Shown here piece after piece: positions 3,012 through 16,550 of a stretch of 16,550 nt of DNA. Position numbers and translations under genes: made by a program. The stretch comes from Longivirga aurantiaca (lineage in GTDB: Bacteria > Actinomycetota > Actinomycetes > S36-B12 > CAIYMF01). The stretch is taken from positions 1-16,550 of the forward strand of contig NZ_JBHSTI010000033.1 of assembly GCF_042660085.1 (NCBI RefSeq), given 5' to 3'. The notes beneath the pieces were generated by a model. That model was not told the origin of the DNA, did no database searches, and saw nothing but the letters and a program-made list of their open reading frames with translations. Every line of letters begins with the position of its first letter. Positions within the stretch are counted from its first letter, which is position 1.

Positions 3012-3089
3012 GTCAACCTCCCCTGGCCTGCGCCGACCACGTCCGTCTGCGACCGTAGTGCACCAGGACGGGTGAGGGAGAGGCGACCG

Positions 3090-3875
3090 GTGAAGGTGCT
3101 CAGCCGCACGGCGGGCGGCGTGGCGCTCGTGGCGGGCATCGTCATGGGCGTCTGGCTGCTCGGCGACATCGGCGCCATGGCCGGGGTCGTGCTCGCGATG
3201 CTCGGCTTCCAGGCCCTCACCCGGAAGGTCGAGGGCCAGCACTACGTCAGCGCCGCCCTCATCACCACCGCCGGCCTCATCGTCATCGGCTGGAAGCACG
3301 GCGTCACGCTGACCGAGCTCGGGCTCGGACGCAGCACCTGGCTCACCGGTCTCATCTGGTCGGTCGGCATCATCCTGACGATCGGGATCGTGATCGGGAT
3401 CGCCGGCGGCATCCCGCGCATGCACAAGTACTTCGCGGACGACCGGGTCTCCGACGCCGACGGCGTCCTCACGTCGAGGCGCGTGCTGCTCGACATCCCC
3501 TTCGGCACGGTTCTCGTGGAGGAGTTCGCCTTTCGCGGACTGCTCCTCGCGCTCATGACCGCGCAGTGGGGGGTCGTCTGGGCGGTCGCGATCACGTCGC
3601 TGCTCTTCGGGCTCTGGCACATCGGGCCGGCGCTGGAGATGCACAGCGCGCACCAGGAGGCGACGGGCCACGTGCTCGTCACCGTCGGCTCGACCGTGCT
3701 GTTCACCGGCCTGTCCGGCGTGGGGTTCGCAGTGCTGCGGATCTTCACCGGCAGCCTGTTCCCGCCGGCCGCCCTGCACTGGGCCGCCAACGGCACCGGC
3801 GTCGTGGTCGGCTTCTTCGTCAACCGCCGCCTGCGCCACCAGGCCGAGGCCGCAGCCCTCGACCCCCCGGCATAG
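3090..3875 (+). CDS. CPBP-family intramembrane glutamic endopeptidase (CAAX protease / Abi family), 261 aa
   Basis: A GTG at 3090 is preceded by GGGAGAGG at 3075-3082. All three CPBP signature motifs are present: VEEFAFRG (EExxxR), FGLWH (FxxxH) and HWAAN (HxxxN). The protein is hydrophobic throughout. The stop is TAG at 3873-3875. Confidence 0.8.
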   Translation: MKVLSRTAGGVALVAGIVMGVWLLGDIGAMAGVVLAMLGFQALTRKVEGQHYVSAALITTAGLIVIGWKHGVTLTELGLGRSTWLTGLIWSVGIILTIGIVIGIAGGIPRMHKYFADDRVSDADGVLTSRRVLLDIPFGTVLVEEFAFRGLLLALMTAQWGVVWAVAITSLLFGLWHIGPALEMHSAHQEATGHVLVTVGSTVLFTGLSGVGFAVLRIFTGSLFPPAALHWAANGTGVVVGFFVNRRLRHQAEAAALDPPA

Positions 3876-3925: not shown

Positions 3926-4624
3926 CTACGCGCCCCAGGAATCGGGGTGAGCCGTCGGGCCGGACACCTCGGTCAGCGTGGCCACGACGTCGCCCGTCGT
4001 ACGCCGGAGCAGCAGCCCACCGGGGCCCACGACGTCCTCGCCCGACCGGTCGAGCCCGTCCCCGCTGAGCCGCCAGTGCCGCAGCGTGCCATCGACGTCC
4101 GAGCCGCCGACCATCACCACCTCGTCGCCGGCGTCCTGCACGGACACCTCGACCGGCACCGGCACGAGGAAGGTCGACGCGTCGAGCGCATCGCCCACCT
4201 CGAAGGAGTACGCCGGGCCCGCGGCGAGCCGTCCGCCGAGCACCAGGGCGGGGAGCACGAGCGGGCCGCCGACCGAGACGGGCTCGAGCTCGACGTCGTC
4301 GACGAACCGGCGCACCTCGACGGCACCCGGCACCTCGACGCAGGCGACCGTCGCGCCCCGGACGACTCCGGTGCCCGAGCCGACCCAGCGCAGGACGACG
4401 GCGAAGACCTCGGCCGACCAGCGCGCGTCGACCTCGAGCCGGCTCACCGGGGCCGCCGCGATCCGGGTCGAGCGCACCCGCCAGGCGCCCGGACCGACCT
4501 CGCCCGCCACCCACTGCTCGTCGACCCCGGCAGCACCGCCGTCCACCCGCCGGTGGAGGTAGCGCCCTCGTGACCGGTCGGCGTCCTTCGGCATATCGGG
4601 CATCGCGGGATCAGCAGCGCTCAC
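3926..4624 (-). CDS. Hypothetical protein with no motif I recognise (about 225-232 aa)
   Basis: GC3 is strongly G/C in this minus frame along the whole ORF. A GTG at 4624 is preceded by GGGAGGA 7 nt upstream. An alternative start is the ATG at 4603 (MPDMPKD). The sequence is rich in Val, Gly, Asp and Glu, consistent with beta structure, and has no TM segment. Confidence 0.55.
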   Translation of the reverse strand: MSAADPAMPDMPKDADRSRGRYLHRRVDGGAAGVDEQWVAGEVGPGAWRVRSTRIAAAPVSRLEVDARWSAEVFAVVLRWVGSGTGVVRGATVACVEVPGAVEVRRFVDDVELEPVSVGGPLVLPALVLGGRLAAGPAYSFEVGDALDASTFLVPVPVEVSVQDAGDEVVMVGGSDVDGTLRHWRLSGDGLDRSGEDVVGPGGLLLRRTTGDVVATLTEVSGPTAHPDSWGA

Positions 4625-4710
4625 GCCCTCATCCTCCCAGCCGCCCGCGGGCCCGCACCTCGCCGACACCGCGACCTCGGTCACCACGGGGCCGTGCCTC
4701 GCGACAGGAT

Positions 4711-5296: not shown

Positions 5297-5417
5297 TAGC
5301 TGAGTCGTGGATCCGTCGCAGAGCGCACGCGCGTTACCCGGGTAACCCGGGTCGCCTCTAGCTGAGTCGTGGATCCGTCGCAGAGCGCACGCTCGTTACC
5401 CGGGTAACCCGGGTCGC
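5297..5417. repeat. Tandem direct repeat, 2 x 59 bp with a 62-bp period, each unit carrying the palindrome GTTACCCGGGTAAC
   Basis: Copy 1 (5297-5355) and copy 2 (5359-5417) are identical except for one base (G at 5331, T at 5393). Unit sequence: TAGCTGAGTCGTGGATCCGTCGCAGAGCGCACGC(G/T)CGTTACCCGGGTAACCCGGGTCGC. The repeat occupies almost all of the 140-bp gap between two convergent stop codons. Confidence 0.9.
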
Positions 5418-5420
5418 GCG

Positions 5421-6296
5421 TCAGGCGCGGAGGATCGGGCGGGTCATGCAGGTGGGGCCGCCCTCGCCCTTGTCGCTCTGCTCGGAGTCGAAGGTGTGCA
5501 CCTCGACACCCTTCTCGCGCAAGGCATCCGCGGTCCGCACGTTGCGCTCGCCCATCAGCACGACGCCGGGACGCACCGCGAGGATGTTGCAGCCGAGGGT
5601 GACGTACTCCTCGTCGTCGACGACGATCCACTCGATGCCGCGCTTGGCCAGCGACTGCAGCATCGCGACGGGCGCGAGCTTCTCGTAGACGACGGCGAGG
5701 TCCTCGCGCACCGGCGAGATGGTCGACATCAGGTGCAGGCAGTACTCCGGGCCGAGGTCGTGCGGGAGGTCGAAGACCTCGACCTTCACGCCGTCGGCGG
5801 CGAGGATCCCACGCACCTGGTCGACCGCGTCCTGGTTCGTGCGGTAGCTGCGGCCGATCGCGACGGTGTCCTCGTCCATCCAGTACATGTCGCCGGCATC
5901 CGCCGTGGCGTCGCCGACGAGACGGCCCACGGTCGGAACGCCGGCCGACTCGAGGCCCGCGATGAGGTGCGCACCCTCACCACGTCGCGCCTCCTTGGCC
6001 GCGACCAGCTCGATCGACCCCGACGGGCCGACGAAGACGGGGTCGTACACGAACACGGCGTCCGGCAGGCCCGGCACGGGGTCGAGCTCGACGACGTCCG
6101 ACCCGAGGTCGCGCAAGGTCTGCACGAAGCCCGCGTGCTGCGCGGCGAGGCGGTCGAGGTCGGGCGTCTGCCAGTGCGCCGCCTCGTACTGCGCGACGAC
6201 GTCGGGGCCGCCGGTGAGCGGGCGGCGCACGGCGACGCGCAGGAGCGGCGCGACCGACGAGCGGACGCCGTACGACGAGGTGGTGGATGCGGTCAT
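5421..6296 (-). CDS. Guanidino-group-modifying enzyme, dimethylarginine dimethylaminohydrolase / amidinotransferase family, 291 aa
   Basis: The start is the ATG at 6296 (MTASTTSSYG). The C-terminal GGPTCMTRPI carries the catalytic Cys context typical of the DDAH / arginine deiminase / amidinotransferase superfamily. FVYDP, GDMYW and CLHLMS blocks are also present. The first 90 residues of the track ORF are non-protein-like. Confidence 0.75.
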   Translation of the reverse strand: MTASTTSSYGVRSSVAPLLRVAVRRPLTGGPDVVAQYEAAHWQTPDLDRLAAQHAGFVQTLRDLGSDVVELDPVPGLPDAVFVYDPVFVGPSGSIELVAAKEARRGEGAHLIAGLESAGVPTVGRLVGDATADAGDMYWMDEDTVAIGRSYRTNQDAVDQVRGILAADGVKVEVFDLPHDLGPEYCLHLMSTISPVREDLAVVYEKLAPVAMLQSLAKRGIEWIVVDDEEYVTLGCNILAVRPGVVLMGERNVRTADALREKGVEVHTFDSEQSDKGEGGPTCMTRPILRA

Positions 6297-6349
6297 GGGC
6301 GGGAGCCTGCCAGAGCGGGGAGGCAGCAGGAAACCCGTGTGCCGACGCC

Positions 6350-6388
6350 GTCGAATCCGGGAGGGTGTGCTCGTACAGGGGGTGAGGG
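6350..6388 (+). promoter_or_regulatory. Candidate ECF-type promoter P1 upstream of DGPF gene 1
   Basis: GTCGAA at 6350-6355, a 15-nt spacer, TCGTACAG at 6371-6378, 3 nt, then GTGAGGG at 6382-6388. It ends 31 nt before the ATG at 6420. The same boxes with the same spacing occur at 6781-6819 and at 15472-15510 on the minus strand. Confidence 0.55.
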
Positions 6389-6419
6389 GCGGCGAGGCGC
6401 CGCCCGCCGAGGAGGAGCC

Positions 6420-6770
6420 ATGGCCTACTACAAGCTGAGCGTCTGCTACCCGAACGGCGTCGCCGAGCCGGACGCCGACGAGCTCGCACGGATCATGGCC
6501 GAGGTGGGAGCGCTGAACGACGACCTCAAGGCGGCGGGCGCCTGGGTGTTCGGTGGCGGCCTGCACGAGCCGTCGACCGCCACGGTGGTCGTGACGACCG
6601 AGGGCAGCACGTCGATGACCGACGGCCCGTTCATCGAGTCCAAGGAGCAGATCGGCGGCTTCACCATCGTGGAGGTCGACGACCTCGACGCCGCGCTCGC
6701 CTGGGCCGCGCGGTTCTCCACCGCGACGGGCACCCCCATCGAGGTCTGGCCGTTCGCCGGCATCGGCTGA
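6420..6770 (+). CDS. YciI/DGPF-family protein, paralog 1, 116 aa
   Basis: An ATG at 6420 is preceded by GGAGGAG. MAYYKLSV..., AAGAWVFGGGL, TDGPFIESKEQIGGF and IEVWPF are the hallmark blocks of YCII-related DGPF-domain proteins. Only the last 116 codons of track ORF 5496-6770 are real. Confidence 0.85.
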   Translation: MAYYKLSVCYPNGVAEPDADELARIMAEVGALNDDLKAAGAWVFGGGLHEPSTATVVVTTEGSTSMTDGPFIESKEQIGGFTIVEVDDLDAALAWAARFSTATGTPIEVWPFAGIG

Positions 6771-6780
6771 GCGCCGTCCT

Positions 6781-6819
6781 GTCGAAGCGGCCCGACGCTG
6801 TTCGTACAGCAGACGAGGG
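6781..6819 (+). promoter_or_regulatory. Candidate ECF-type promoter P2 upstream of DGPF gene 2 and, possibly, the sigma gene
   Basis: (T)GTCGAA at 6780-6786, a 15-nt spacer, TCGTACAG at 6802-6809, 3 nt, then ACGAGGG at 6813-6819. It lies in the 159-bp gap after DGPF gene 1, 110 nt before the ATG at 6930. Confidence 0.55.
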
Positions 6820-6929
6820 CGCCGCGACCGGCCCTCGCGAGGGAGGCCTGGCTGCCTCGTGGGCGGGCAGGGGCACCCTCATGCGGAATCTGAGAACGTT
6901 GTGGCACAGCATCACGAGAGGCGAGAACC

Positions 6930-7283
6930 ATGAGCGAGTACCTGCTGGCAGTGCACGGGTCGGACGACCAGGCCAACTACGCGACCGACGAGGAGATGCA
7001 GGCCGCGTTCGCAGCGGTCAACGCGTTCAACGCCGACCTGCAGGCGGCCGGCGCCTGGGTCTTCGCCGGCGGTCTGATGCCCAAGGAGACGGCGTCCGTC
7101 GTGCGGCCCACGGCCGACGGCGGGTTCACCCGTACCGACGGCCCGTTCCTCGAGAGCAAGGAGCACCTCGGCGGCTTCTGGGTGATCGACGTGGCCGACG
7201 ACGACGCGGCGTTCGAGTGGGCCGCCAAGGGGGCCAAGGCCTGCGCCCAGCCCGTCGAGGTGCGCCCCTTCCAGGGCGTGTGA
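6930..7283 (+). CDS. YciI/DGPF-family protein, paralog 2, 117 aa
   Basis: MSEYLLAVHG..., AAGAWVFAGGL, TDGPFLESKEHLGGFWVIDVAD and VEVRPFQGV. It is closely similar to the protein encoded at 15082-15438. Confidence 0.85.
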   Translation: MSEYLLAVHGSDDQANYATDEEMQAAFAAVNAFNADLQAAGAWVFAGGLMPKETASVVRPTADGGFTRTDGPFLESKEHLGGFWVIDVADDDAAFEWAAKGAKACAQPVEVRPFQGV

Positions 7284-7315
7284 CCCTCCCAGCACCGGTG
7301 GCCCTCCCCGTGAGA

Positions 7316-7362
7316 CTGATCGATCCGTCGCTTCCCGGGCCGGGAGGCGACGGATCGATCAG
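7316..7362. repeat. 47-bp near-perfect palindrome (23-nt arms) between DGPF gene 2 and the sigma gene
   Basis: CTGATCGATCCGTCGCTTCCCGG (7316-7338) pairs with CCGGGAGGCGACGGATCGATCAG (7340-7362). Every position pairs except 7332/7346, which is T opposite G (a U-G wobble in the plus-strand RNA only). It starts 33 nt after the stop at 7283 and ends 13 nt before the GTG at 7375. Confidence 0.85.
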
Positions 7363-7374
7363 GGTGAGCAGGGG

Positions 7375-8637
7375 GTGAGGGTGGACGGAGCAGAGGTCGA
7401 GCGGGTCTTCCGCGCCGACTACGGCCGCGCGGTCGCCACCCTCGCACGCCTCGTCGGCGACATCGGCCTCGCCGAGGAGGCCGTGCAGGAGGCCTTCGCC
7501 ATCGCGCTCGAGCGCTGGCCGCGCGACGGCGTCCCGCCGAGCCCGACCGGCTGGATCGTCACCACCGCGCGCAACCGCGCGATCGACCGCGCCCGCCGCG
7601 AGGCCCTACGCGACGACAAGCACGCCGAGGCCGTCGCCCTCGCCGAGCAGCTGCGCCCCGACGAGCCCGAGGAGGTCGGCCCCGTGCGCGACGACCGCCT
7701 GCGCCTCGTGTTCACGTGCTGCCACCCGGCGCTCGCACCGGAGGCGCGCGTCGCGCTCACGCTGCGCCTGATCGCCGGGCTGCAGACCGCGCAGATCGCC
7801 CGGGCGTTCCTCGTGAGCGAGACGACGATGGCGCAACGCCTCGTCCGAGCGAAGAACAAGATCCGCGCCGCGCGCATCCCCTACCGCGTGCCCGCAGAGC
7901 ACGACCTCCCCGACCGGCTCACGCCCGTGCTCGCCGTCGTCTACCTCGTCTTCAACGAGGGCTACCTGTCGAGCGACGGCGAGAACGCCGAGCGCGCCGA
8001 CCTCGTCGAGGAGTCGGTGCGGCTCGCGCGCCTGCTCGTCGAGCTCATGCCCGACGAGCCCGAGGCGCTCGGCCTCCTCGCCCTTCTGCTGCTCACGCTG
8101 GCTCGGCGTCCGGCGCGGTTCGACGACGCCGGCGACCTCGTGCTGCTGCCGGATCAGGACCGCTCGCTCTGGGACGCGGCTCTGGTGCAGGAGGGGCAGG
8201 ACCTCGTCCGGAAGTGCTTGCGCCGCAATGCACCTGGGCCCTACCAGCTGCAGGCCGCGATCTCGGCGGTCCACTCCGACGCCGCCTCCGCCGAGTCCAC
8301 CGACTGGGCGCAGATCGTCGCGCTCTACGACCATCTCCTCGCCGTCGCGCCGTCGCCGGTGGTGGCGCTCAACCGAGCGGTCGCGGTCGCCGAGCTGCGC
8401 GGCCCGGTCGAGGGGCTGGCGCTCGTCGACGCGCTCGACCTCGACGGCTACCACCTCGCGCATGCGGTCCGCGCCGAGCTCCTGCGTCGTACGGGCGACG
8501 ACGCCGGCGCGCGGACGGCGTACGACCGGGCCCTCGGACTGGTGACGAACCCGGCCGAGCGCCGCCACCTCGAGCGCCGCATCGCCACCCTCACCGCCGA
8601 TCAGATCCTCGAGTTACTGCCCAAAAGGTCGCTCTGA
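7375..8637 (+). CDS. ECF-type sigma-70 family factor with a long C-terminal TPR-like extension (ECF42-type), 420 aa
   Basis: Region 2 (GWIVTTARNRAIDRARR) and the region 4 HTH (LQTAQIARAFLVSETTMAQRLVRAKNKIR) are followed by an extension of about 230 aa containing VYLVFNEGY and GPYQLQAAISAVH. These are typical of the sigma factors found next to DGPF/YciI genes. The start is GTG at 7375 or 7381. Confidence 0.85.
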   Translation: MRVDGAEVERVFRADYGRAVATLARLVGDIGLAEEAVQEAFAIALERWPRDGVPPSPTGWIVTTARNRAIDRARREALRDDKHAEAVALAEQLRPDEPEEVGPVRDDRLRLVFTCCHPALAPEARVALTLRLIAGLQTAQIARAFLVSETTMAQRLVRAKNKIRAARIPYRVPAEHDLPDRLTPVLAVVYLVFNEGYLSSDGENAERADLVEESVRLARLLVELMPDEPEALGLLALLLLTLARRPARFDDAGDLVLLPDQDRSLWDAALVQEGQDLVRKCLRRNAPGPYQLQAAISAVHSDAASAESTDWAQIVALYDHLLAVAPSPVVALNRAVAVAELRGPVEGLALVDALDLDGYHLAHAVRAELLRRTGDDAGARTAYDRALGLVTNPAERRHLERRIATLTADQILELLPKRSL

Positions 8638-8670
8638 GGAGCCTCACAGCGACCTTTTGGGCAGTAACTC
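8611..8670. repeat. 60-bp near-perfect palindrome (29-nt arms, 28 of 29 complementary), locally AT-richer, overlapping the 3' end of the sigma gene
   Basis: GAGTTACTGCCCAAAAGGTCGCTCTGAGG (8611-8639), then AG, then CCTCACAGCGACCTTTTGGGCAGTAACTC (8642-8670). The only mismatch is 8634/8647. The left arm encodes the last 8 codons and the TGA (8635-8637) of the sigma gene. The right arm ends 15 nt before the stop of the convergent acyl-CoA ligase gene (8686). Confidence 0.9.
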
Positions 8671-8685
8671 GCGCACGGGGCGGGG

Positions 8686-10386
8686 TCAGGTGCGGCGGTC
8701 GGGGTGCGACTCGAGGATCTTGCGGACGTCGCGGTGCAGCACCTTGCCGATCAGCGAGCGCGGCAGCTCGTCGAGCACGAACACCTGGCGCGGCACCTTG
8801 TAGCCGGTGAGCGACTCGCGCACCGCCTCCCGCACCGCGGCGGGATCGAGCACGGCGAAGCCCTCGGCCACGACCGCCGCCACGACCGTCTCGCCGCCCG
8901 TGTCGTTGGGCAGGCCCACGGCCGCGGCGTCGGCGACACCGGGCACGCGCCGGAGCGCCTCCTCGACCTCGGACGGGTACACGTTGAACCCGCCCGTGAT
9001 GATGAGCTCCTTGATCCGGTCGACCACGGTGACGAAGCCGTCGTCGTCCATCACGACGATGTCGCCGGTGCGGATCCAACCACCCTCGAGCAACGTCTTC
9101 GCGGTGTCCTCGGGGCGGTTCCAGTAGCCGCTCATCACCTGCGGGCCGCGCACGAGCAGCTCGCCCGGCTCGTCGGTCGCGACGTCGTGCGTCGGGTCGT
9201 TCGGGTCGACCACGCGCACCTCGGTCGAGGGGAACGGCACACCGACCGAGCCCGGCCGGCGCGTGCCGCCGGCCGGGTTCCCGAGGGTCACCGGCGACGT
9301 CTCGGTCATGCCGTAGCCCTCGACGAGCAGGCCGCCCGTCACCGACTCCCACTGCTCGACCGTCGCCGGCGGCAGCGACATCGCACCGGAGATGCCGTAG
9401 CGGATCGTGCTGAGGTCGACCCCGCGCTTCACGGACGCCTCGGCAAGTGCTTGGTACACAGGCGGAACCGCGGGCAGGAACGTCGCCGGCCGACGTACGG
9501 ACGCCTCGAGCACCTGGTCGACGTCGAACCGCGGGAACAGCACGAGCACGGCGCCGATGGAGATCGTGAACGTCAGGCACAGCGTCAGTCCGTACGCGTG
9601 GAAGAGCGGCAGGACGCCGTACACGACCTCCTGGCCGTCCTTCAGGCCGGGCATCCACGCGCGGCCCTGCGCGGCGTTCGACCGCAGGTTGCGGTGCGTC
9701 AGCATCGCGCCCTTGGGGGCACCCGTCGTGCCGCCGGTGTACTGCAGCAGCGCGAGGTCGTCGGCCGAGGGCTTGGGATGGTCGGCGGCCAACGGCGTCG
9801 CCACCTTGAGAAGGCGGTCCCACGTCAGCGTCCCCGGCGCGGGTGCCGTCATCGCCGCGCGCGTCTCGCGCGCCTTCTTCACGGGCAGCATGAGCATGAG
9901 CCGCTGCTTGCGCGGCAGAGCCGTCGTGATGTCGACCGCGATGATCGTGCGCAGGGGCGAGGTCTCCGCGACCTTCTGCAGGGTCCCGGCCACCTTGTCC
10001 CAGGCGATGGCCACCTCGGCCCCGTGGTCGTCGAACTGGTGCTGCAGCTCCTCGCGCGTGTAGAGCGGGTTGTGCTCGACGACGACCGCGCCGAGCCGCA
10101 GCGCGGCGTAGAACGCCACCACGTGCTGCGGGCAGTTGGGCATCACGAGAGCCACGCGATCGCCGCGCCGTACGCCGAGACCGAGCAGGACGTTGGCCAT
10201 GCGCACGACCTGGTCGCCGAGCTCGCGGTACGTCGTCGTGGCGCCGTAGAAGTCGAGCGCCACGAGGTCGGCGAAGCGTGTCACCGACGTCGCGAGCAGG
10301 TCCGCGAGCGACTCGTCGCTGACGTCGATCTCGGCGGGGACGCCCGGCGCGTACTGGGCGAGCCAGGGGCGGTCTGGGGTGCTCAC
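8686..10386 (-). CDS. fadD: Long-chain fatty-acid--CoA ligase (AMP-forming acyl-CoA synthetase), 566 aa
   Basis: A GTG at 10386 is preceded by GAGGAG 5 nt upstream. Adenylate-forming signatures are present: YTGGTTGAPKGAMLTHRN, GYGMTE, TGDIVVMDDDGFVTVVDRIKE and a C-terminal SLIGKV. The 909-aa track ORF is an artefactual upstream extension. Confidence 0.85.
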   Translation of the reverse strand: MSTPDRPWLAQYAPGVPAEIDVSDESLADLLATSVTRFADLVALDFYGATTTYRELGDQVVRMANVLLGLGVRRGDRVALVMPNCPQHVVAFYAALRLGAVVVEHNPLYTREELQHQFDDHGAEVAIAWDKVAGTLQKVAETSPLRTIIAVDITTALPRKQRLMLMLPVKKARETRAAMTAPAPGTLTWDRLLKVATPLAADHPKPSADDLALLQYTGGTTGAPKGAMLTHRNLRSNAAQGRAWMPGLKDGQEVVYGVLPLFHAYGLTLCLTFTISIGAVLVLFPRFDVDQVLEASVRRPATFLPAVPPVYQALAEASVKRGVDLSTIRYGISGAMSLPPATVEQWESVTGGLLVEGYGMTETSPVTLGNPAGGTRRPGSVGVPFPSTEVRVVDPNDPTHDVATDEPGELLVRGPQVMSGYWNRPEDTAKTLLEGGWIRTGDIVVMDDDGFVTVVDRIKELIITGGFNVYPSEVEEALRRVPGVADAAAVGLPNDTGGETVVAAVVAEGFAVLDPAAVREAVRESLTGYKVPRQVFVLDELPRSLIGKVLHRDVRKILESHPDRRT

Positions 10387-10485
10387 GATGACTCCTCGGG
10401 TCGACGTGCCCACCCTCCCACCTGCGCGCACCGGAGGAGGGACGGGGCGGTGGCCGCCTCGGGGTCCGCTCGCTACCGTGGCGCC

Positions 10486-10692
10486 ATGGCGGAGCAGGTG
10501 AAGGGCCCGGCGTCGTACTTCCCCTCGATCGAGAAGAAGTACGGCCAGCCGATCAGCCACTGGATGGACGAGCTGGCCACGGTCGCCGGCGAGCCGCACA
10601 TGAAGCAGGTCGAGTTCCTGAAGACCGAGCACGGTCTCGGCCACGGGCACGCGAACGCCCTCGTCGCGGCGTACCGCGCCGACCACGCCTAG
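10486..10692 (+). CDS. DUF4287-like small protein, 68 aa
   Basis: ATG at 10486. SYFPSIEKKYG...HGLGHGHANALVA resembles the DUF4287 family as I remember it. This is the last 68 codons of track ORF 8704-10692, the rest of which is antisense to the ligase gene. Confidence 0.65.
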   Translation: MAEQVKGPASYFPSIEKKYGQPISHWMDELATVAGEPHMKQVEFLKTEHGLGHGHANALVAAYRADHA

Positions 10693-10752
10693 GTCGCCGA
10701 CTCGCAGATGTAACGCGGCGCGGCACCCGTCAGCCATGCGCGACCCCCGGGC

Positions 10753-11487
10753 GTGGGGCAGGATCGGCCCGTGCGGATCCTGGCGGTGTCGGACCTGCAC
10801 TACCGCCTGCCCCACTACGACTGGCTCGTGAACGCCGCCGACGGCGTCGACGTCGTCGCGCTGGTGGGCGATCTCGCCGATGTCGTCAGCCCCGTGCCCC
10901 TCGGCGTCCAGACGGTCGTGCTGGAGAAGTACCTCGGTCTGCTCGCCGACAGGGCGGTCGTGCTGGCGTCGTCGGGCAACCACGACCTCGACGGCCCCGG
11001 CGAGCACGGCGAGCAGGTCGCCTCCTGGCTGCGCTCGGCCGGTGGCGGCAACGTGCACACCGACGGCATGTCCGTCGACATCGGCGACACCCGGTTCACG
11101 ATCTGCCCCTGGTGGGACGGCCCCGTGTCGCGCGACGCCGTCGCCGCGCAGATCGCGGCCGCCGCGGTCGATCGCCCCGCGCGCTGGGTGTGGCTCTACC
11201 ACTCGCCGCCCGCCGGTACGCCGCTGTGCAAGGACGGCCGCCGCGAGTTCCCCGACCACGAGCTCGCCGCGTGGATCGAGGAGCACTCGCCGGACCTCGT
11301 GCTGTGCGGCCACATCCACCAGGCGCCGTGGATCGAGGGCGGCACCTGGCACGCCGAGCTCGGCAGCACCAAGGTCTTCAACGCGGGCAAGCAGCCGGGC
11401 AAGGTGCCGCCGCACATCACGTTCGACCTCGAGGCGGGCACCGCGGAGTGGTTCGGCGTCTACGACGTCGAGACGATCACGCTCTAG
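10753..11487 (+). CDS. Calcineurin-like metallophosphoesterase, about 238-244 aa
   Basis: The metal-binding motifs occur in order: AVSDLH, GDLAD, GNHD and CGHIH. The start is GTG at 10753 or, more likely, GTG at 10771, which has GGCAGGA upstream. Confidence 0.8.
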   Translation: MGQDRPVRILAVSDLHYRLPHYDWLVNAADGVDVVALVGDLADVVSPVPLGVQTVVLEKYLGLLADRAVVLASSGNHDLDGPGEHGEQVASWLRSAGGGNVHTDGMSVDIGDTRFTICPWWDGPVSRDAVAAQIAAAAVDRPARWVWLYHSPPAGTPLCKDGRREFPDHELAAWIEEHSPDLVLCGHIHQAPWIEGGTWHAELGSTKVFNAGKQPGKVPPHITFDLEAGTAEWFGVYDVETITL

Positions 11488-11496
11488 ACCCTCGGC

Positions 11497-11988
11497 TCAG
11501 TGGACGTGGTCGCCCTCGGGGTCGCGCGCGGACCCCGTGCGGATCTCGGGCGCCTGGTGGTTCACGAGCGTGTCGAGGATGCCCTCGACCATGCCGAGGT
11601 GGCCCTCGAGCTCGGCGAACTGGCCCTTCACGTCCACGAGGTACTGCGTGAGGCCGTCGAGCCGGCTGGCCGTCGTACGCAGCACCGCGAGGGCGGCACC
11701 GGGGTTCACGGTGAGGAACCCCTCGGCGTCATCGGCCACGTGCACCTCGACGTCGGTCTCCGCGCGCACCGTGGCGGTGGCCGGCTTGCGCAGGACGACG
11801 GCCATCTCGCCGAAGACCGCGCCGGGCGACTCGATCCGCGCGAACGAGACGCCGTCGCGCTCGATCGTGACGCTGCCCGACTTCAGCACGTAGAGGCGAC
11901 CGGGGTCGGTGCCCTCCTGGATGAGCGCCGCGCCCGCGGGCACCGTCTCCACAGGCAGTCGCGACGCGAGCGAGAGCAGGTCGGCCAT
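11497..11988 (-). CDS. Stand-alone cyclic-nucleotide-binding domain protein, 163 aa
   Basis: A phosphate-binding-cassette-like segment, FGEMAVVLRKPATATVRA, sits inside a predicted beta-roll (GRLYVLKSGSV...). The roughly 55-aa C-terminal tail has no recognisable HTH. Confidence 0.75.
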   Translation of the reverse strand: MADLLSLASRLPVETVPAGAALIQEGTDPGRLYVLKSGSVTIERDGVSFARIESPGAVFGEMAVVLRKPATATVRAETDVEVHVADDAEGFLTVNPGAALAVLRTTASRLDGLTQYLVDVKGQFAELEGHLGMVEGILDTLVNHQAPEIRTGSARDPEGDHVH

Positions 11989-12911: not shown

Positions 12912-13050
12912 GTCGGAACGGTAGAGACGCGTCGGCCTCCGCGGGGCTCGAACCCGGAATCAGGGCCCGACGCGGCTGAGGATTGGGCCGACCGGAATGC
13001 GGGTACACCCCCCGGGTCGCGACCGGCGCGACGCCGCAGGAGGGACCGCG

Positions 13051-13227
13051 ATGTCCGACGAGCAGATCATCCCCAGCACCGACGAGCCCGACCCCGGCAC
13101 GCGCGACGGCGTGGGCGAGCGCGTGGAGCACGGCCTCGGAAGCGACGGCGTGCAGCGCATGGAGGGCGAGTTCGGCGACCTCGAGAGCGACGCCCCGACG
13201 CTCGCCGACGACGACCCCACGTCCTAG
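13051..13227 (+). CDS. Small, highly acidic hypothetical protein, 58 aa
   Basis: The ATG at 13051 is preceded by GCAGGAGGGA at 13037-13046. Third codon positions are almost exclusively G or C (one exception by eye). The composition is rich in Asp, Glu, Gly and Pro and looks disordered. I recognise no homology. Confidence 0.55.
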   Translation: MSDEQIIPSTDEPDPGTRDGVGERVEHGLGSDGVQRMEGEFGDLESDAPTLADDDPTS

Positions 13228-13346: not shown

Positions 13347-15008
13347 ATGGCTATGGCAGGAGCGGACGTCGTCGCGCCGACCGCTGAGCGCGAGGTGGCC
13401 CGGCCCGGCTGGGGACCGGCCCGGGTGGCCGCGGTGATCGTCGCGCTCGGCTCGCTCCTCAGCCTCATCACGGCGTGGGGGGCCTGGTCGGCGGACCAGC
13501 GCAACGAGCGCGACCTCCTCGCGGTGCAGACCAAGCAGGCGGCCGCGGTGATCGGAGGGCAGATCCTGACGATCCAGGAGCCGCTCGAGACCGCGTTGCG
13601 CGTCGCGCAGGCGACCGACGGCGACCCGGCCCGGTTCCGGCTGACGATGGGCCGCGCCACAGGTCCCGACGACGTGTTCGTCAGCGCATCTCTGTGGGAC
13701 ACCTCGGGCCCGGAACCCGTGCTGGTCGAGCAGATCGGGACCGAGCCCGTGCTCGATCCCGGCTCGGTCGACGCGCGCGAGCTCGTGCTCAAGGCCCGGG
13801 CGACGGCGGGGTTCGTCGTCACCCGCGCGGACGACGACTACAACCCTGTCTCCTACGCGGCCGGCGACCCGGTCGACCCGCGCTGGGTCGTGTACGCCGA
13901 GCGCGCCATCCCCGCGGACCGCATCGCCCCGGTGCAGCGGACCGCACCGTTCGCCGAGCTCCACTTCGCGACGTACATCGGTGCCGCCGACGACCCGTCG
14001 AACCTTGTCACCACGAACGTGACCATGGACGAGCTCCCCCTGACGGGCGGGACGTCGTCGGTGGAGCTCCCGTTCGGCGACAAGACGCTCACGTTCGTGG
14101 CCACGGCCAAGCGGCACCTCGGGGGCGAGCTCGGATGGCTGCTCCCGTGGCTGATCCTCGCCGTCGGCCTCGCCCTCACGATGATCACGGCGTTCGCAGC
14201 GGCGAACCTGGTGCGCTCCCGACGTCGCGCCGAGGCCGACCGCCGGACGATCGCCGACCTCTACGACCGGCTCGACGTGCTCTACGGCGAGCAGCGCAGC
14301 ATCGCTCAGACCCTGCAGCGGGCCCTGCTCCCGGCGTTCAACCCGGACATCCCCGGGCTCGATATCGCGTCCCGGTACGTCGCCGGCGCGGAGGGCGTCG
14401 ACATCGGCGGCGACTGGTACAGCATCATCCGCCGGGGCGAGCGCGAGGTGTGCTTCGTCGTCGGCGACGTGTCGGGCCGCGGCATCGGTGCGGCCACCGT
14501 GATGGCGCGGCTGCGCTTCACGATCCGCGCCTACCTCGCCGAGGGGCACAGCCCCGGAGTCGTGCTCGGTATGTGCTCCGAGCAGTTCGACATCGACGAG
14601 GACGGCCACATCGCCACGGTGGTGGTCGGCGTCCTCGACCTCGACACCTGCGGCCTCGTGCTTGCCAGCGCCGGACACTTCGCGCCGCTCGTGGTCGACG
14701 CCGAGGGCACGGCGAGATACCTCGAGCTCGACCCCGGGCCGCCGCTCGGCGTCATGGCGACGACCTACCGCGAGACCACGCCGTCGATGGGCGTCGGATC
14801 GACCCTGGTCGCCTTCACCGACGGCCTGGTGGAGCGCCGGGGCGAGAGCCTCGACGTGGGGCTGGACAGGCTTGCCCGCGCCGCCGCCCGCGGGTCGTCC
14901 ACCGTGGATCACCTGCTCGACGTCCTGGTGGGCCATCTGTTGGAGGACGGACCCGAGGACGACACAGCCCTGCTCGCGTTCCGCTGCCTCGGCGACGACA
15001 CGGCCTGA
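13347..15008 (+). CDS. Membrane-bound PP2C/SpoIIE-family serine/threonine phosphatase with an extracytoplasmic sensor-like domain, about 551-553 aa
   Basis: Two hydrophobic segments (AAVIVALGSLLSLITAWGAW and WLLPWLILAVGLALTMITAFAAA) bracket a domain of about 210 aa. The C-terminal half carries SpoIIE/PP2C blocks: DIGGDWY, VVGDVSGRGIGAA and AFTDGLVE. The start is ATG at 13347 or 13353. Confidence 0.8.
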   Translation: MAMAGADVVAPTAEREVARPGWGPARVAAVIVALGSLLSLITAWGAWSADQRNERDLLAVQTKQAAAVIGGQILTIQEPLETALRVAQATDGDPARFRLTMGRATGPDDVFVSASLWDTSGPEPVLVEQIGTEPVLDPGSVDARELVLKARATAGFVVTRADDDYNPVSYAAGDPVDPRWVVYAERAIPADRIAPVQRTAPFAELHFATYIGAADDPSNLVTTNVTMDELPLTGGTSSVELPFGDKTLTFVATAKRHLGGELGWLLPWLILAVGLALTMITAFAAANLVRSRRRAEADRRTIADLYDRLDVLYGEQRSIAQTLQRALLPAFNPDIPGLDIASRYVAGAEGVDIGGDWYSIIRRGEREVCFVVGDVSGRGIGAATVMARLRFTIRAYLAEGHSPGVVLGMCSEQFDIDEDGHIATVVVGVLDLDTCGLVLASAGHFAPLVVDAEGTARYLELDPGPPLGVMATTYRETTPSMGVGSTLVAFTDGLVERRGESLDVGLDRLARAAARGSSTVDHLLDVLVGHLLEDGPEDDTALLAFRCLGDDTA

Positions 15009-15081
15009 GCCCTCGTACGCCGGACGCGGAGGCCGTGAGCTCTCTGCAGGCCGGTGTCGCCGGAACCGCTCGCACCGCGGG

Positions 15082-15438
15082 TCAATCGCCGACGACCCCC
15101 TGGAACGGGCGGACCTCCACCGCGCCCTCGCAGGCCACGGTCGCGCGCTCCGCCCATGCCAGGGCCTCGGCCTCGTCGGCGACGTCGAGCACCCAGAAGC
15201 CGCCGATGTGCTCCTTGCTCTCGAGGTACGGGCCGTCGGTGCGCTCCAGCGCGCCGTCACGCGCGCGGACGACGCGGGCGGTCGTCGACGCCGCGAGCCC
15301 TCCGGCGAAGACGAAGACCCCGGCCTCGCGCATGGCGTCGTTGACCCTCCCGGTCGCCGCGAACGCGCGCTCGGCGTGCTCCGGGGTCGGGTAGACCGGG
15401 GTGTCGTCGTTGTGGACCGACAGCAGGTAGTGGGTCAT
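15082..15438 (-). CDS. YciI/DGPF-family protein, paralog 3, 118 aa
   Basis: The ATG at 15438 is preceded by GAGGAG 6 nt upstream on the minus strand. MTHYLLSVH..., FVFAGGL, TDGPYLESKEHIGGFWVLDVAD and VEVRPFQGV. Confidence 0.85.
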   Translation of the reverse strand: MTHYLLSVHNDDTPVYPTPEHAERAFAATGRVNDAMREAGVFVFAGGLAASTTARVVRARDGALERTDGPYLESKEHIGGFWVLDVADEAEALAWAERATVACEGAVEVRPFQGVVGD

Positions 15439-15471
15439 GCGGGGCTCCTCGGCTGCGGCCGGCGGCTCCGG

Positions 15472-15510
15472 CCCTCACGAACTGCACGATCTGCACGACG
15501 CCGATTCGAC
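15472..15510 (-). promoter_or_regulatory. Candidate ECF-type promoter P3 upstream of DGPF gene 3
   Basis: The minus strand reads GTCGAA (15510-15505), a 15-nt spacer, TCGTGCAG (15489-15482), 3 nt, then GTGAGGG (15478-15472). It ends 33 nt before the ATG at 15438. A second GGTCGAAT box sits 8 nt further upstream (15513-15520). Confidence 0.55.
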
Positions 15511-15599
15511 CATTCGACCGCACGGATCCGCCTCGGAGCGCGGCGGTATCGCCGGCTCGGTGCCGATCCTGCCGCGACCGGGCCGTGCGTGCTGGACCG

Positions 15600-16550
15600 A
15601 TGCCTGCCCCGCTGTGCGGCGTCGGCGATACTCGTGCGGTGAGGGAGCAGTGGTTCACCCGTGCGACCGAGCTGGACCCGATCGGTCCGACGGTCCGCGA
15701 GGTCGACTGGGCCAGCACCTCGTGGGGCCCGCCCGAGGACTGGGCACCGGGGCTCCGGTCGGCGGTGGAGATCTGCCTGAGCACGCGCTTCCCCGTGCTC
15801 GTCACGTGGGGCCCGGACCTCCTCATGCTCTACAACGAGGGCTACCGCGCCATGCTCGGACGCGAGAAGCAGGCAGGTGCGACCGGGCGGCCGGTGGCGC
15901 AGGTCTGGAGCGAGGTGTGGCCCGACATCTCGCCGCTGTTCGGCCAGGTGCTGTCCACCGGCGTCCCCGTCTACCTGGAGGACACCCCGCTGAGGGTGAA
16001 CCGCTCCGGGTACGACGAGGACGCGTGGTTCACGTTCTGCTACTCCGCGCTGAGGGACGAGAGCGGCCAGGTCCAGGGCGTTCTCGACATCGCGTACGAG
16101 ACGACCGAGCAGGTGGTGGCTCGTCGTCGGCTGTCGTTCGTCTCGATGCTGTCGACGCAGCTGCACGCGGCCACCGGGGACGTCGACGCCCTCGGCCGGG
16201 TCGTGTCCGACGTCCTCGGGCGGTCCCTGGACCTGCATGCCGCCGAGCTCTCGCTGCTCGTCGACGAGCGGTTCATCCCCCTCGCCCGGGCCAACCCGCG
16301 CGAAGTGCCGCTGCTGGACCCGTCGACCGTCCCCGAGCTTGTCCGGTCGCACCGGGCCCAGGTGGTCGGAGACACGTTCGTCATGCCGTTGACCGGGTCG
16401 GCCACCGATCCGGTGGTCGGAGTCCTGGCCCTGCGGGCGACCGCGGGACGGGCACCCGACGGCCTGCAGCTCGACTTCATGGAGCTCGTCGGGGTGACGA
16501 TCGCGAGCGCGCTCAGCACCTCGGTGAAGCACATGAGCGAGGTCGGCGAG
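15600..16550 (+). CDS. PAS (PAS_4-like) and GAF-like sensor protein, 3' end outside the window; the output domain is not visible
   Basis: This CDS is not in the supplied ORF track. I read the frame codon by codon from 15600 to 16550 and found no stop. GC3 is high. WGPPEDWAP...FPVLVTWGPDLLMLYNEGYRAMLGREK...DAWFTFCYSALRDESGQVQGVL is a typical PAS_4 N-terminal sensor block, followed by a GAF-like region. The start is tentative: ATG at 15600, with in-frame alternatives GTG at 15585 and 15639. Confidence 0.7.
   Translation, partial: MPAPLCGVGDTRAVREQWFTRATELDPIGPTVREVDWASTSWGPPEDWAPGLRSAVEICLSTRFPVLVTWGPDLLMLYNEGYRAMLGREKQAGATGRPVAQVWSEVWPDISPLFGQVLSTGVPVYLEDTPLRVNRSGYDEDAWFTFCYSALRDESGQVQGVLDIAYETTEQVVARRRLSFVSMLSTQLHAATGDVDALGRVVSDVLGRSLDLHAAELSLLVDERFIPLARANPREVPLLDPSTVPELVRSHRAQVVGDTFVMPLTGSATDPVVGVLALRATAGRAPDGLQLDFMELVGVTIASALSTSVKHMSEVGE

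Follow-up and report, generated by a model that had tools for sequence, protein, structure and literature searches.

A typical ECF42-type sigma factor locus with tandem DGPF genes and a predicted, DGPF-exclusive promoter motif in Longivirga aurantiaca

How is an extracytoplasmic function (ECF) sigma factor controlled when no anti-sigma gene accompanies it, and which promoters does it serve? This question is raised by a 16,550-bp stretch of the genome of Longivirga aurantiaca (the whole of contig NZ_JBHSTI010000033.1, C33 in our numbering, referred to here as the window), in which two tandem genes for small DGPF proteins of the YCII family, DGPF1 and DGPF2, precede a sigma gene of the ECF42 type, and a third paralog, DGPF3, lies at some distance. 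The ECF42 group is among the most widespread sigma-factor groups. In this study, we report that the locus is a typical, clean example of this group rather than a novel type of system; everything testable fits and nothing contradicts. It is read as a standard ECF42 module, with a probability of about 0.82, in which a sigma factor regulated by its own C-terminal tail, with no anti-sigma factor, reads the DGPF promoters and is autoregulated by read-through. This reading builds on gene content, domains, fold, exclusivity of the promoter motif and co-occurrence of the motif with the sigma gene, which were observed directly. What is new is a DGPF-exclusive motif, TGTCGA(A/T)-N16-CGT(A/G)CAG, a predicted promoter that is located before each DGPF gene of the window.

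The assembly comprises 3.67 Mb in 71 contigs, with a completeness of 96%. The window has a G+C content of 72%, and its genes were called from third-position GC frame analysis and checked against Pfam and NCBIfam. The coordinates of the features discussed are collected in Table 1.

The hallmarks published for ECF42 are a TPR tail of ~200 amino acids (aa) that is essential for activity, the lack of an anti-sigma factor and a YCII-related neighbour (PMC8999054, PMC7826278, PMC9023288). An earlier note on this DNA, made from the letters alone, had described an ECF42-type sigma factor with a sigma-2 region, a sigma-4 region and a C-terminal extension of about 230 aa, and had proposed a Pfam search of the 420-aa protein. 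All three domains expected were matched in this search, namely Sigma70_r2 (residues 15-77), Sigma70_r4_2 (113-163) and DUF6596 (181-281, 4.5e-35); the core consists of sigma-2 and sigma-4 only, with no region 3, and the TIGR02937 sigma70-ECF model scored above its cut-off. The tail past sigma-4 spans ~250 aa (residues ~170-420), the last ~12 of which are encoded by a palindrome described below, and the length given earlier was therefore a fair one. A search of the PDB by sequence matched the sigma-2/sigma-4 part to SigK, SigL and SigE and turned up no ECF42 structure. The AlphaFold2 model of the sigma factor, based on 60 homologs from many phyla, was all-helical, with a predicted local distance difference test (pLDDT) score of 92.4 and a predicted template modelling (pTM) score of 0.90, the latter of which suggests a fixed arrangement of the sigma domains in the model. 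When the model was compared with the PDB using Foldseek, TPR proteins ranked top (consensus TPR arrays, Tom70, OGT and TTC0263), and one of these, TTC0263 (2pl2), had a root-mean-square deviation (rmsd) of 3.9 A over 210 columns.

Pfam gave no SnoaL_2/NTF2 match in the sigma factor, which excludes the ECF41/ECF56 type. ECF41 (the SigJ type) and ECF56 resemble the window sigma factor in having a fused C-terminal regulatory domain in place of an anti-sigma factor and in promoter style (TGTCACA...CGTC in ECF41), but their extension is a SnoaL/NTF2-like alpha+beta domain of ~100 aa, whereas the tail here is all-helical, TPR-like and ~250 aa long, with DUF6596. The idea that the sigma factor belongs to one of these or to a similar extension-bearing group, or that the small proteins are not DGPF proteins, could appeal to NCBIfam, which gave generic ECF matches only and left all subfamily and equivalog models below their cut-offs. 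Set against the nature of the tail and the strong YCII and PA1349 matches of the small proteins (see below), this idea is effectively refuted already and its probability is negligible. Membership of ECF42 is supported by architecture, neighbours and promoter type; the core, the TPR-like tail, the upstream DGPF/YCII genes, the lack of an anti-sigma gene and the type of promoter were each found, and the assignment made in the earlier note is supported.

At the start of sigma-4, the sigma factor carries the residues F-T-C-C-H-P (113-118, encoded at 7711-7728), which are invariant in 60 ECF42-type sigma factors from many phyla and in the second sigma factor of this genome, whereas ordinary ECF sigma factors have no cysteines there. 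These residues may form a redox or metal site.

The absence of an anti-sigma gene beside the sigma gene, also noted before, was borne out in three ways. Genes on the opposite strand lie on both sides of the operon and leave no space for a co-transcribed anti-sigma gene. None of the window proteins, those of both flanking genes included, matched an anti-sigma family of Pfam or NCBIfam even at lenient thresholds. The HxxxCxxC motif was absent from all six frames of the contig. The three window proteins with no Pfam or NCBIfam match (3059-3875, 3926-4687 and 13050-13227) are all encoded outside the operon.

The first promoter pattern used, TGTCG-N15-20-CGWC, gave 9 matches against 10.6 expected and missed the real sites because their -10 element is CGTA or CGTG. 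The pattern GTCGAA-N16-CGT(A/G)CAG, read from the intergenic regions, matched three times in the window against 0.08 expected, and these three sites (P1 at 6350-6378, P2 at 6781-6809 and P3 at 15510-15482) are its only matches in the 3.67-Mb genome. With GTCGA(A/T), five matches were found genome-wide, against ~0.3 expected by chance on a rough estimate, and 5/5 lie directly upstream of DGPF genes, the two extra sites preceding two orphan DGPF genes on contig C8. A position weight matrix (PWM) was built from 75 motif sites of many genomes across phyla; in a scan of the genome with this matrix, the five DGPF sites scored 27-42 bits and the next best site scored 16 bits. The logo of the 75 sites, TGTCGA(T/A)-N13-GTT-CGT(G/A)-N-A-N5-TG, has its final TG where the start site would be expected, and agrees with TGTCGG-N17-CGTC, the experimentally supported promoter sequence of RpoE10, an ECF42 sigma factor of Sinorhizobium meliloti (PMC6180224). 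By analogy with the S. venezuelae and S. meliloti members of the group, the window sigma factor would read the motif, and its tail would be both required for its activity and able to modulate it. The sigma factor with core RNA polymerase would then recognise TGTCGA(A/T)-N16-CGT(A/G)C promoters and, since every occurrence of the motif precedes a DGPF gene (three in the contig, two outside it), the switch would in essence produce DGPF proteins only.

The comparison with related genomes bears on this prediction. At least 587 relatives of the sigma factor were found in a single scan, spanning Actinomycetota, Chloroflexota, Acidobacteriota, Planctomycetota and other phyla. A DGPF gene is usually located directly upstream, with the motif ~75-80 nt before its start codon, and most of 80 related loci have a DGPF gene next to the sigma gene. 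The order DGPF1-DGPF2-sigma is kept in ten other genomes of the genus, with the motif before most of these DGPF genes; P1 is conserved in the orthologous loci, and P3 is kept in three genomes (G007, G018 and G021). In genus genomes with an ECF42 sigma factor, the motif was present before 18 of 18 first-in-operon orphan DGPF genes, at 71-80 nt and with 15-45 bits, whereas in five genus genomes with no detected ECF42 sigma factor it preceded none of the seven DGPF genes, the best scores being below -12. Presence and absence of the motif track the sigma gene, which is the pattern predicted for a sigma-dependent promoter.

Two orthologous sigma genes of close relatives appear damaged. In locus L093 (G018:C1:1181282-1182503), the sigma factor is matched by two segments with an overlap of a few residues, which may reflect a frameshift, and in locus L086 (G021:C10:80535-81770), an in-frame TAA lies within the match. 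Either the genes are decaying or the assemblies contain errors.

The genome as a whole has two DUF6596 sigma factors and six DGPF genes. The second sigma gene (C8:42857-43990) encodes a protein 55% identical to the window sigma factor and has its own DGPF gene directly upstream; this gene and the two orphans are the three DGPF genes outside the window, all on contig C8. The earlier note had called the window a compact model locus, which is apt insofar as it is a very clean minimal case, and goes too far in view of the second ECF42 sigma factor and the three DGPF genes elsewhere. With two DUF6596 sigma factors in the genome, the GTCGA(A/T) promoters could be read mainly by the C8 sigma factor, or by both interchangeably, in which case the window sigma factor would not be their dedicated regulator; orthologs of the C8 type are located elsewhere behind TGTCGAT...CGTC promoters (loci L099-L101), as this alternative would have it. 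However, the DGPF gene linked to the C8 sigma gene bears a divergent motif, GTCCTC-N16-CGTCCC (14 bits), and a second copy of the GTCCTC type before an unrelated small open reading frame (ORF) suggests a separate specificity, while P1 and P2 are in physical linkage with the window sigma gene throughout the genus. We regard a leading role for the C8 sigma factor as possible, if somewhat unlikely.

The variant motif, GTCCT-N-GTTCGTCC, was located on contig C8 at 44460 (-), before the operon of the DGPF gene and the second sigma gene, and at 2155430 (+), ~95 nt before a 58-aa Cys/His-rich ORF (MGYSFACADAGAPCPG...) that by eye resembles a small metal-binding protein. It may represent a separate regulon or specificity of the second ECF42 sigma factor.

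How the window sigma gene is itself expressed was considered next to its upstream sequence. No PWM match of at least 12 bits and no sigma-70-like promoter was found upstream of the gene, and the 91-nt gap between DGPF2 and the sigma gene is nearly filled by a hairpin at 7316-7362 (centroid -44.8 kcal/mol, z -4.1). Given the lack of a motif of its own and the hairpin ahead of it, the sigma gene probably depends on read-through from P2, which would serve DGPF2 as well, and from P1, which is included because P2 starts just 10 nt past the DGPF1 stop codon. An in-frame GTG at 7381 is as plausible a start of the sigma gene as 7375. The hairpin is probably an intercistronic attenuator or RNA-stability element that would gate expression of the sigma gene; read-through over its 22 bp from P2 (and P1) would result in positive autoregulation, and more DGPF than sigma would be made.

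Pairing in the hairpin is retained by compensatory changes in the nearest relatives, and the same gap elsewhere holds unrelated strong hairpins in three loci and is short instead in five. The near-perfect palindrome with its 23-nt arms might also be a DNA operator for a dimeric repressor of the sigma gene rather than an RNA hairpin, and a decamer, GATCCGTCGC, that it has in common with tandem repeats at 5297-5417 could be taken in the same sense. Yet hairpins of unrelated sequence at the orthologous position, together with the compensatory changes, fit selection on RNA/DNA secondary structure rather than on a sequence to be bound, and an operator would have no promoter close by to act on. An operator is considered quite improbable.

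At the other end of the sigma gene, the palindrome at 8610-8671 supplies the final ~9-12 sigma codons together with the stop codon. Located between the sigma gene and the convergent acyl-CoA ligase gene, it probably terminates transcription in both directions. The tail of the sigma factor, 'DQILELLPKRSL', runs past the consensus end of the family alignment.

The leaders of the DGPF genes were analysed together with the promoters. In most of them, the predicted start is followed by a GAGAGG purine box, then by a short GC hairpin and then by a ribosome-binding site, GGAGG. RNAalifold, applied to a MAFFT alignment of 55 leaders, predicted zero consensus pairs, since the loops differ in length and put the 3' arms out of register, and leader stems were instead counted per sequence against dinucleotide shuffles. 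A perfect stem of at least 5 bp, 4-8 nt past the predicted start, was present in 72% of 75 leaders against 21% (maximum 39%) in shuffles, and for stems of at least 6 bp the figures were 56% and 8%. The leader hairpins include 32 different arm sequences, with a mean folding z-score of -0.76; taken individually, the leaders of DGPF1, DGPF2 and DGPF3 are no more stable than shuffles, and only the family-wide statistic is significant. Rfam gave nothing relevant at E<=1. The package of promoter and leader, with the purine box at the predicted start, a GC hairpin of 5-8 bp with co-varying sequence and, last, the ribosome-binding site, was seen before DGPF genes in Actinomycetota and several other phyla.

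On the simplest reading, the short GC hairpin a few bases past the start of each DGPF mRNA would probably act as a 5' stabiliser. That the packaged leader is an undescribed post-transcriptional control element, either bound by DGPF or working as a sensor, appears improbable, and so, likewise, does a role of the FTCCHP residues as redox or metal signal input. The DGPF2 leader (6810-6929) is ~115 nt long here and in the two nearest relatives, whereas the other members of the genus have ~40-50 nt; the extra length is an insertion, and its fold is no better than that of shuffles.

All three small proteins of the window matched the YCII model (1.6e-14 to 3.6e-17) in a search that the earlier note had proposed, and both their coordinates and these matches agree with its picture of two paralogs in tandem and a third 7.8 kb away. 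The peptides that it quoted are present and DGPF1 is indeed more diverged, but the description of DGPF2 and DGPF3 as very similar overstated an identity of 55.6% (DGPF1 and DGPF2 are ~51% identical over 97 aa, DGPF1 and DGPF3 ~42.5%). Residues D70, G71, P72, E78 and G82 are invariant in 69 DGPF sequences, and the motif D-G-P-(F/Y) ... E-x-K-E ... G-G is present in 6/6 DGPF genes of the genome. A candidate that was rejected is the Cys of DGPF1, in place of His9 of DGPF2 and DGPF3, as a lost catalytic residue; the column is not conserved in the 69 sequences.

A profile of the 69 sequences reached one solved protein in the PDB, PA1349 of Pseudomonas aeruginosa (1S7I, 3.5e-35); classical YciI was not reached by this profile search on sequence and was reached only by the fold search. 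The AlphaFold2 model of DGPF2 (pLDDT 92.6) matched 1S7I in Foldseek with a TM score of 0.85 and an rmsd of 2.1 A, and gave weaker matches to YciI (HI0828, 1MWQ) and to chloromuconolactone isomerases (ClcF), all of which have a ferredoxin-like alpha+beta fold. Modelled as a single chain, DGPF2 is thus predicted to have the ferredoxin-like alpha+beta (dimeric alpha/beta-barrel) fold of PA1349 and YciI. The TDGPF-E-KE-GGF core is common to PA1349 and the window DGPF proteins, but their identity is only ~30% and the match names the family, not an activity.

In a tree of the DGPF proteins of the genus, the position-1 clade, to which DGPF1 belongs, is separate from the position-2 clade (Shimodaira-Hasegawa-like approximate likelihood ratio test, SH-aLRT, 98). 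DGPF3 nests with position-2 genes of other species, and DGPF2 of the four nearest genomes forms a longer branch; this placement indicates that DGPF3 is a recent duplicate of a position-2 gene and that the copy adjacent to the sigma gene diverged faster. No genomes other than the three nearest ones were found to have orthologs of DGPF3, and in each of these the distance to the sigma gene is 8-9 kb.

The DGPF proteins might themselves be the missing regulators, binding the TPR tail and switching the sigma factor on or off, and a heterodimer of a position-1 and a position-2 protein is conceivable. A protein partner of the TPR tail has been proposed in a review, which also describes YCII-ECF fusions in Caulobacter (PMC8999054), and a control search with DUF6596 matched Caulobacter vibrioides; the position-1/position-2 pair is kept throughout the genus, and the predicted regulon consists of DGPF genes alone. 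Against this, the fold is that of small enzymes (YciI and muconolactone isomerases), and genus genomes with no detected ECF42 sigma factor retain DGPF genes, which implies a DGPF function independent of the sigma factor. We find a regulatory role of the DGPF proteins rather unlikely.

Several points weigh against the locus being a standard, autoregulated ECF42 module. A U tract is missing from the hairpin at 7316-7362, and no hairpin is located at this position in 5 of 11 orthologous loci. The genome contains the second ECF42 sigma factor, and the five promoters may be read by either of the two sigma factors or by both. The five sites of this genome were part of the 75-site training set of the PWM, which introduces a small circularity, and the compared genomes are related, so that the counts of presence and absence are not independent.

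Among known systems, the ECF42 sigma factors Sven_0747, Sven_4377 and Sven_7131 of Streptomyces venezuelae (Liu, Pinto & Mascher 2018, as summarised in PMC8999054 and PMC9023288) resemble the present one in the features that those summaries give: an actinomycetotal host, a sigma-2/sigma-4 core, a TPR tail of ~200 aa (there essential for activity), a DGPF/YCII neighbour, the lack of an anti-sigma factor and the presence in one genome of several paralogs of both sigma and DGPF. By the same descriptions, the window locus is set apart by its tandem DGPF genes, each with its own promoter, before the sigma gene, by the strong hairpin between DGPF2 and the sigma gene and by a predicted DGPF-only regulon. 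RpoE10 of S. meliloti (SMc01150) likewise has a YCII-related gene directly upstream, TGTCGG-N17-CGTC promoters, a long TPR tail and no anti-sigma factor (PMC6180224). However, its targets are glyoxalase-like and hydrophobic-ligand-binding proteins, and its own upstream YCII gene is not induced (PMC6180224), whereas in the genome studied here the motif precedes only DGPF genes. Three features are local details within a system that has already been published: the two DGPF genes in tandem with a promoter each, the hairpin between cistrons and a predicted regulon limited to DGPF genes.

Table 1. Positions of the genes, predicted promoters and structured elements of the window
Feature	Coordinates	Strand	Description
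DDAH/amidinotransferase-like gene	5421-6296	divergent from operon	upstream boundary
Promoter P1 (predicted)	6349-6378	+	cGTCGAA-N16-CGTACAG before DGPF1; PWM 36.7 bits; predicted transcription start ~6384
DGPF1 leader	6384-6419	+	GAGG box, 8-bp GC hairpin at 6387-6405, GAGGAGG ribosome-binding site
DGPF1	6420-6770	+	116 aa; YCII 3.6e-17 (Pfam); position-1 clade in DGPF tree
Promoter P2 (predicted)	6780-6809	+	TGTCGAA-N16-CGTACAG; PWM 33.2 bits; begins 10 nt past DGPF1 stop codon
DGPF2	6930-7283	+	117 aa; YCII 4.3e-14 (Pfam); position-2
Near-perfect hairpin	7316-7362	+	22-23 bp, 23-nt arms; between DGPF2 and sigma gene; no U tract
Sigma factor, ECF42-type	7375-8637	+	420 aa; sigma-2, sigma-4, DUF6596, TPR-like tail
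Palindrome	8610-8671		30-nt arms, 97% complementary, z -8.1; overlaps sigma stop codon
Acyl-CoA ligase gene	8686-10377	convergent with sigma gene	downstream boundary
DGPF3	15082-15438	-	118 aa; YCII 1.6e-14; distal duplicate, position-2 lineage
Promoter P3 (predicted) and DGPF3 leader	15439-15511	-	gGTCGAA-N16-CGTGCAG at 15511-15482; GCCGG/CCGGC hairpin; PWM 27.3 bits

The remainder of the window was also annotated. The closest named relatives of the acyl-CoA ligase (89-93% identity) are from metagenome-assembled genomes labelled Candidatus Nanopelagicales or uncultured Actinomycetes. Upstream of the operon, overlapping palindromes around TTACCCGGGTAACCCGGGT (5297-5417) occupy the gap between convergent nucleoside phosphorylase-like and DDAH-like genes. 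Two further genes backed by the frame analysis are among those with no Pfam or NCBIfam match: the product of 3059-3875 is hydrophobic, has EEFAFRG...H motifs and by eye resembles CPBP/CAAX-type intramembrane proteases, and the second gene lies at 3926-4687. The region 10480-11988 encodes a small protein with DUF4287, a calcineurin-like metallophosphoesterase and, convergently, a stand-alone cyclic nucleotide monophosphate (cNMP)-binding protein. Together they could make up a cyclic-nucleotide module with no connection to the sigma locus. At 13347-16550, the neighbours of DGPF3 are a SpoIIE/PP2C phosphatase, whose N-terminal region is long, and a PAS/GAF protein; neither a STAS domain nor an anti-sigma kinase partner was found in the contig.

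For the ECF42 family, the locus leaves the signal and the role of the DGPF proteins where they stood, and with a second sigma factor and three DGPF genes elsewhere in the genome it is not a complete model. It does provide useful design constraints for reporter work, in the form of a motif found before DGPF genes only, a sigma gene that probably depends on read-through and a loss of the sigma factor that parallels loss of the motif within the genus.

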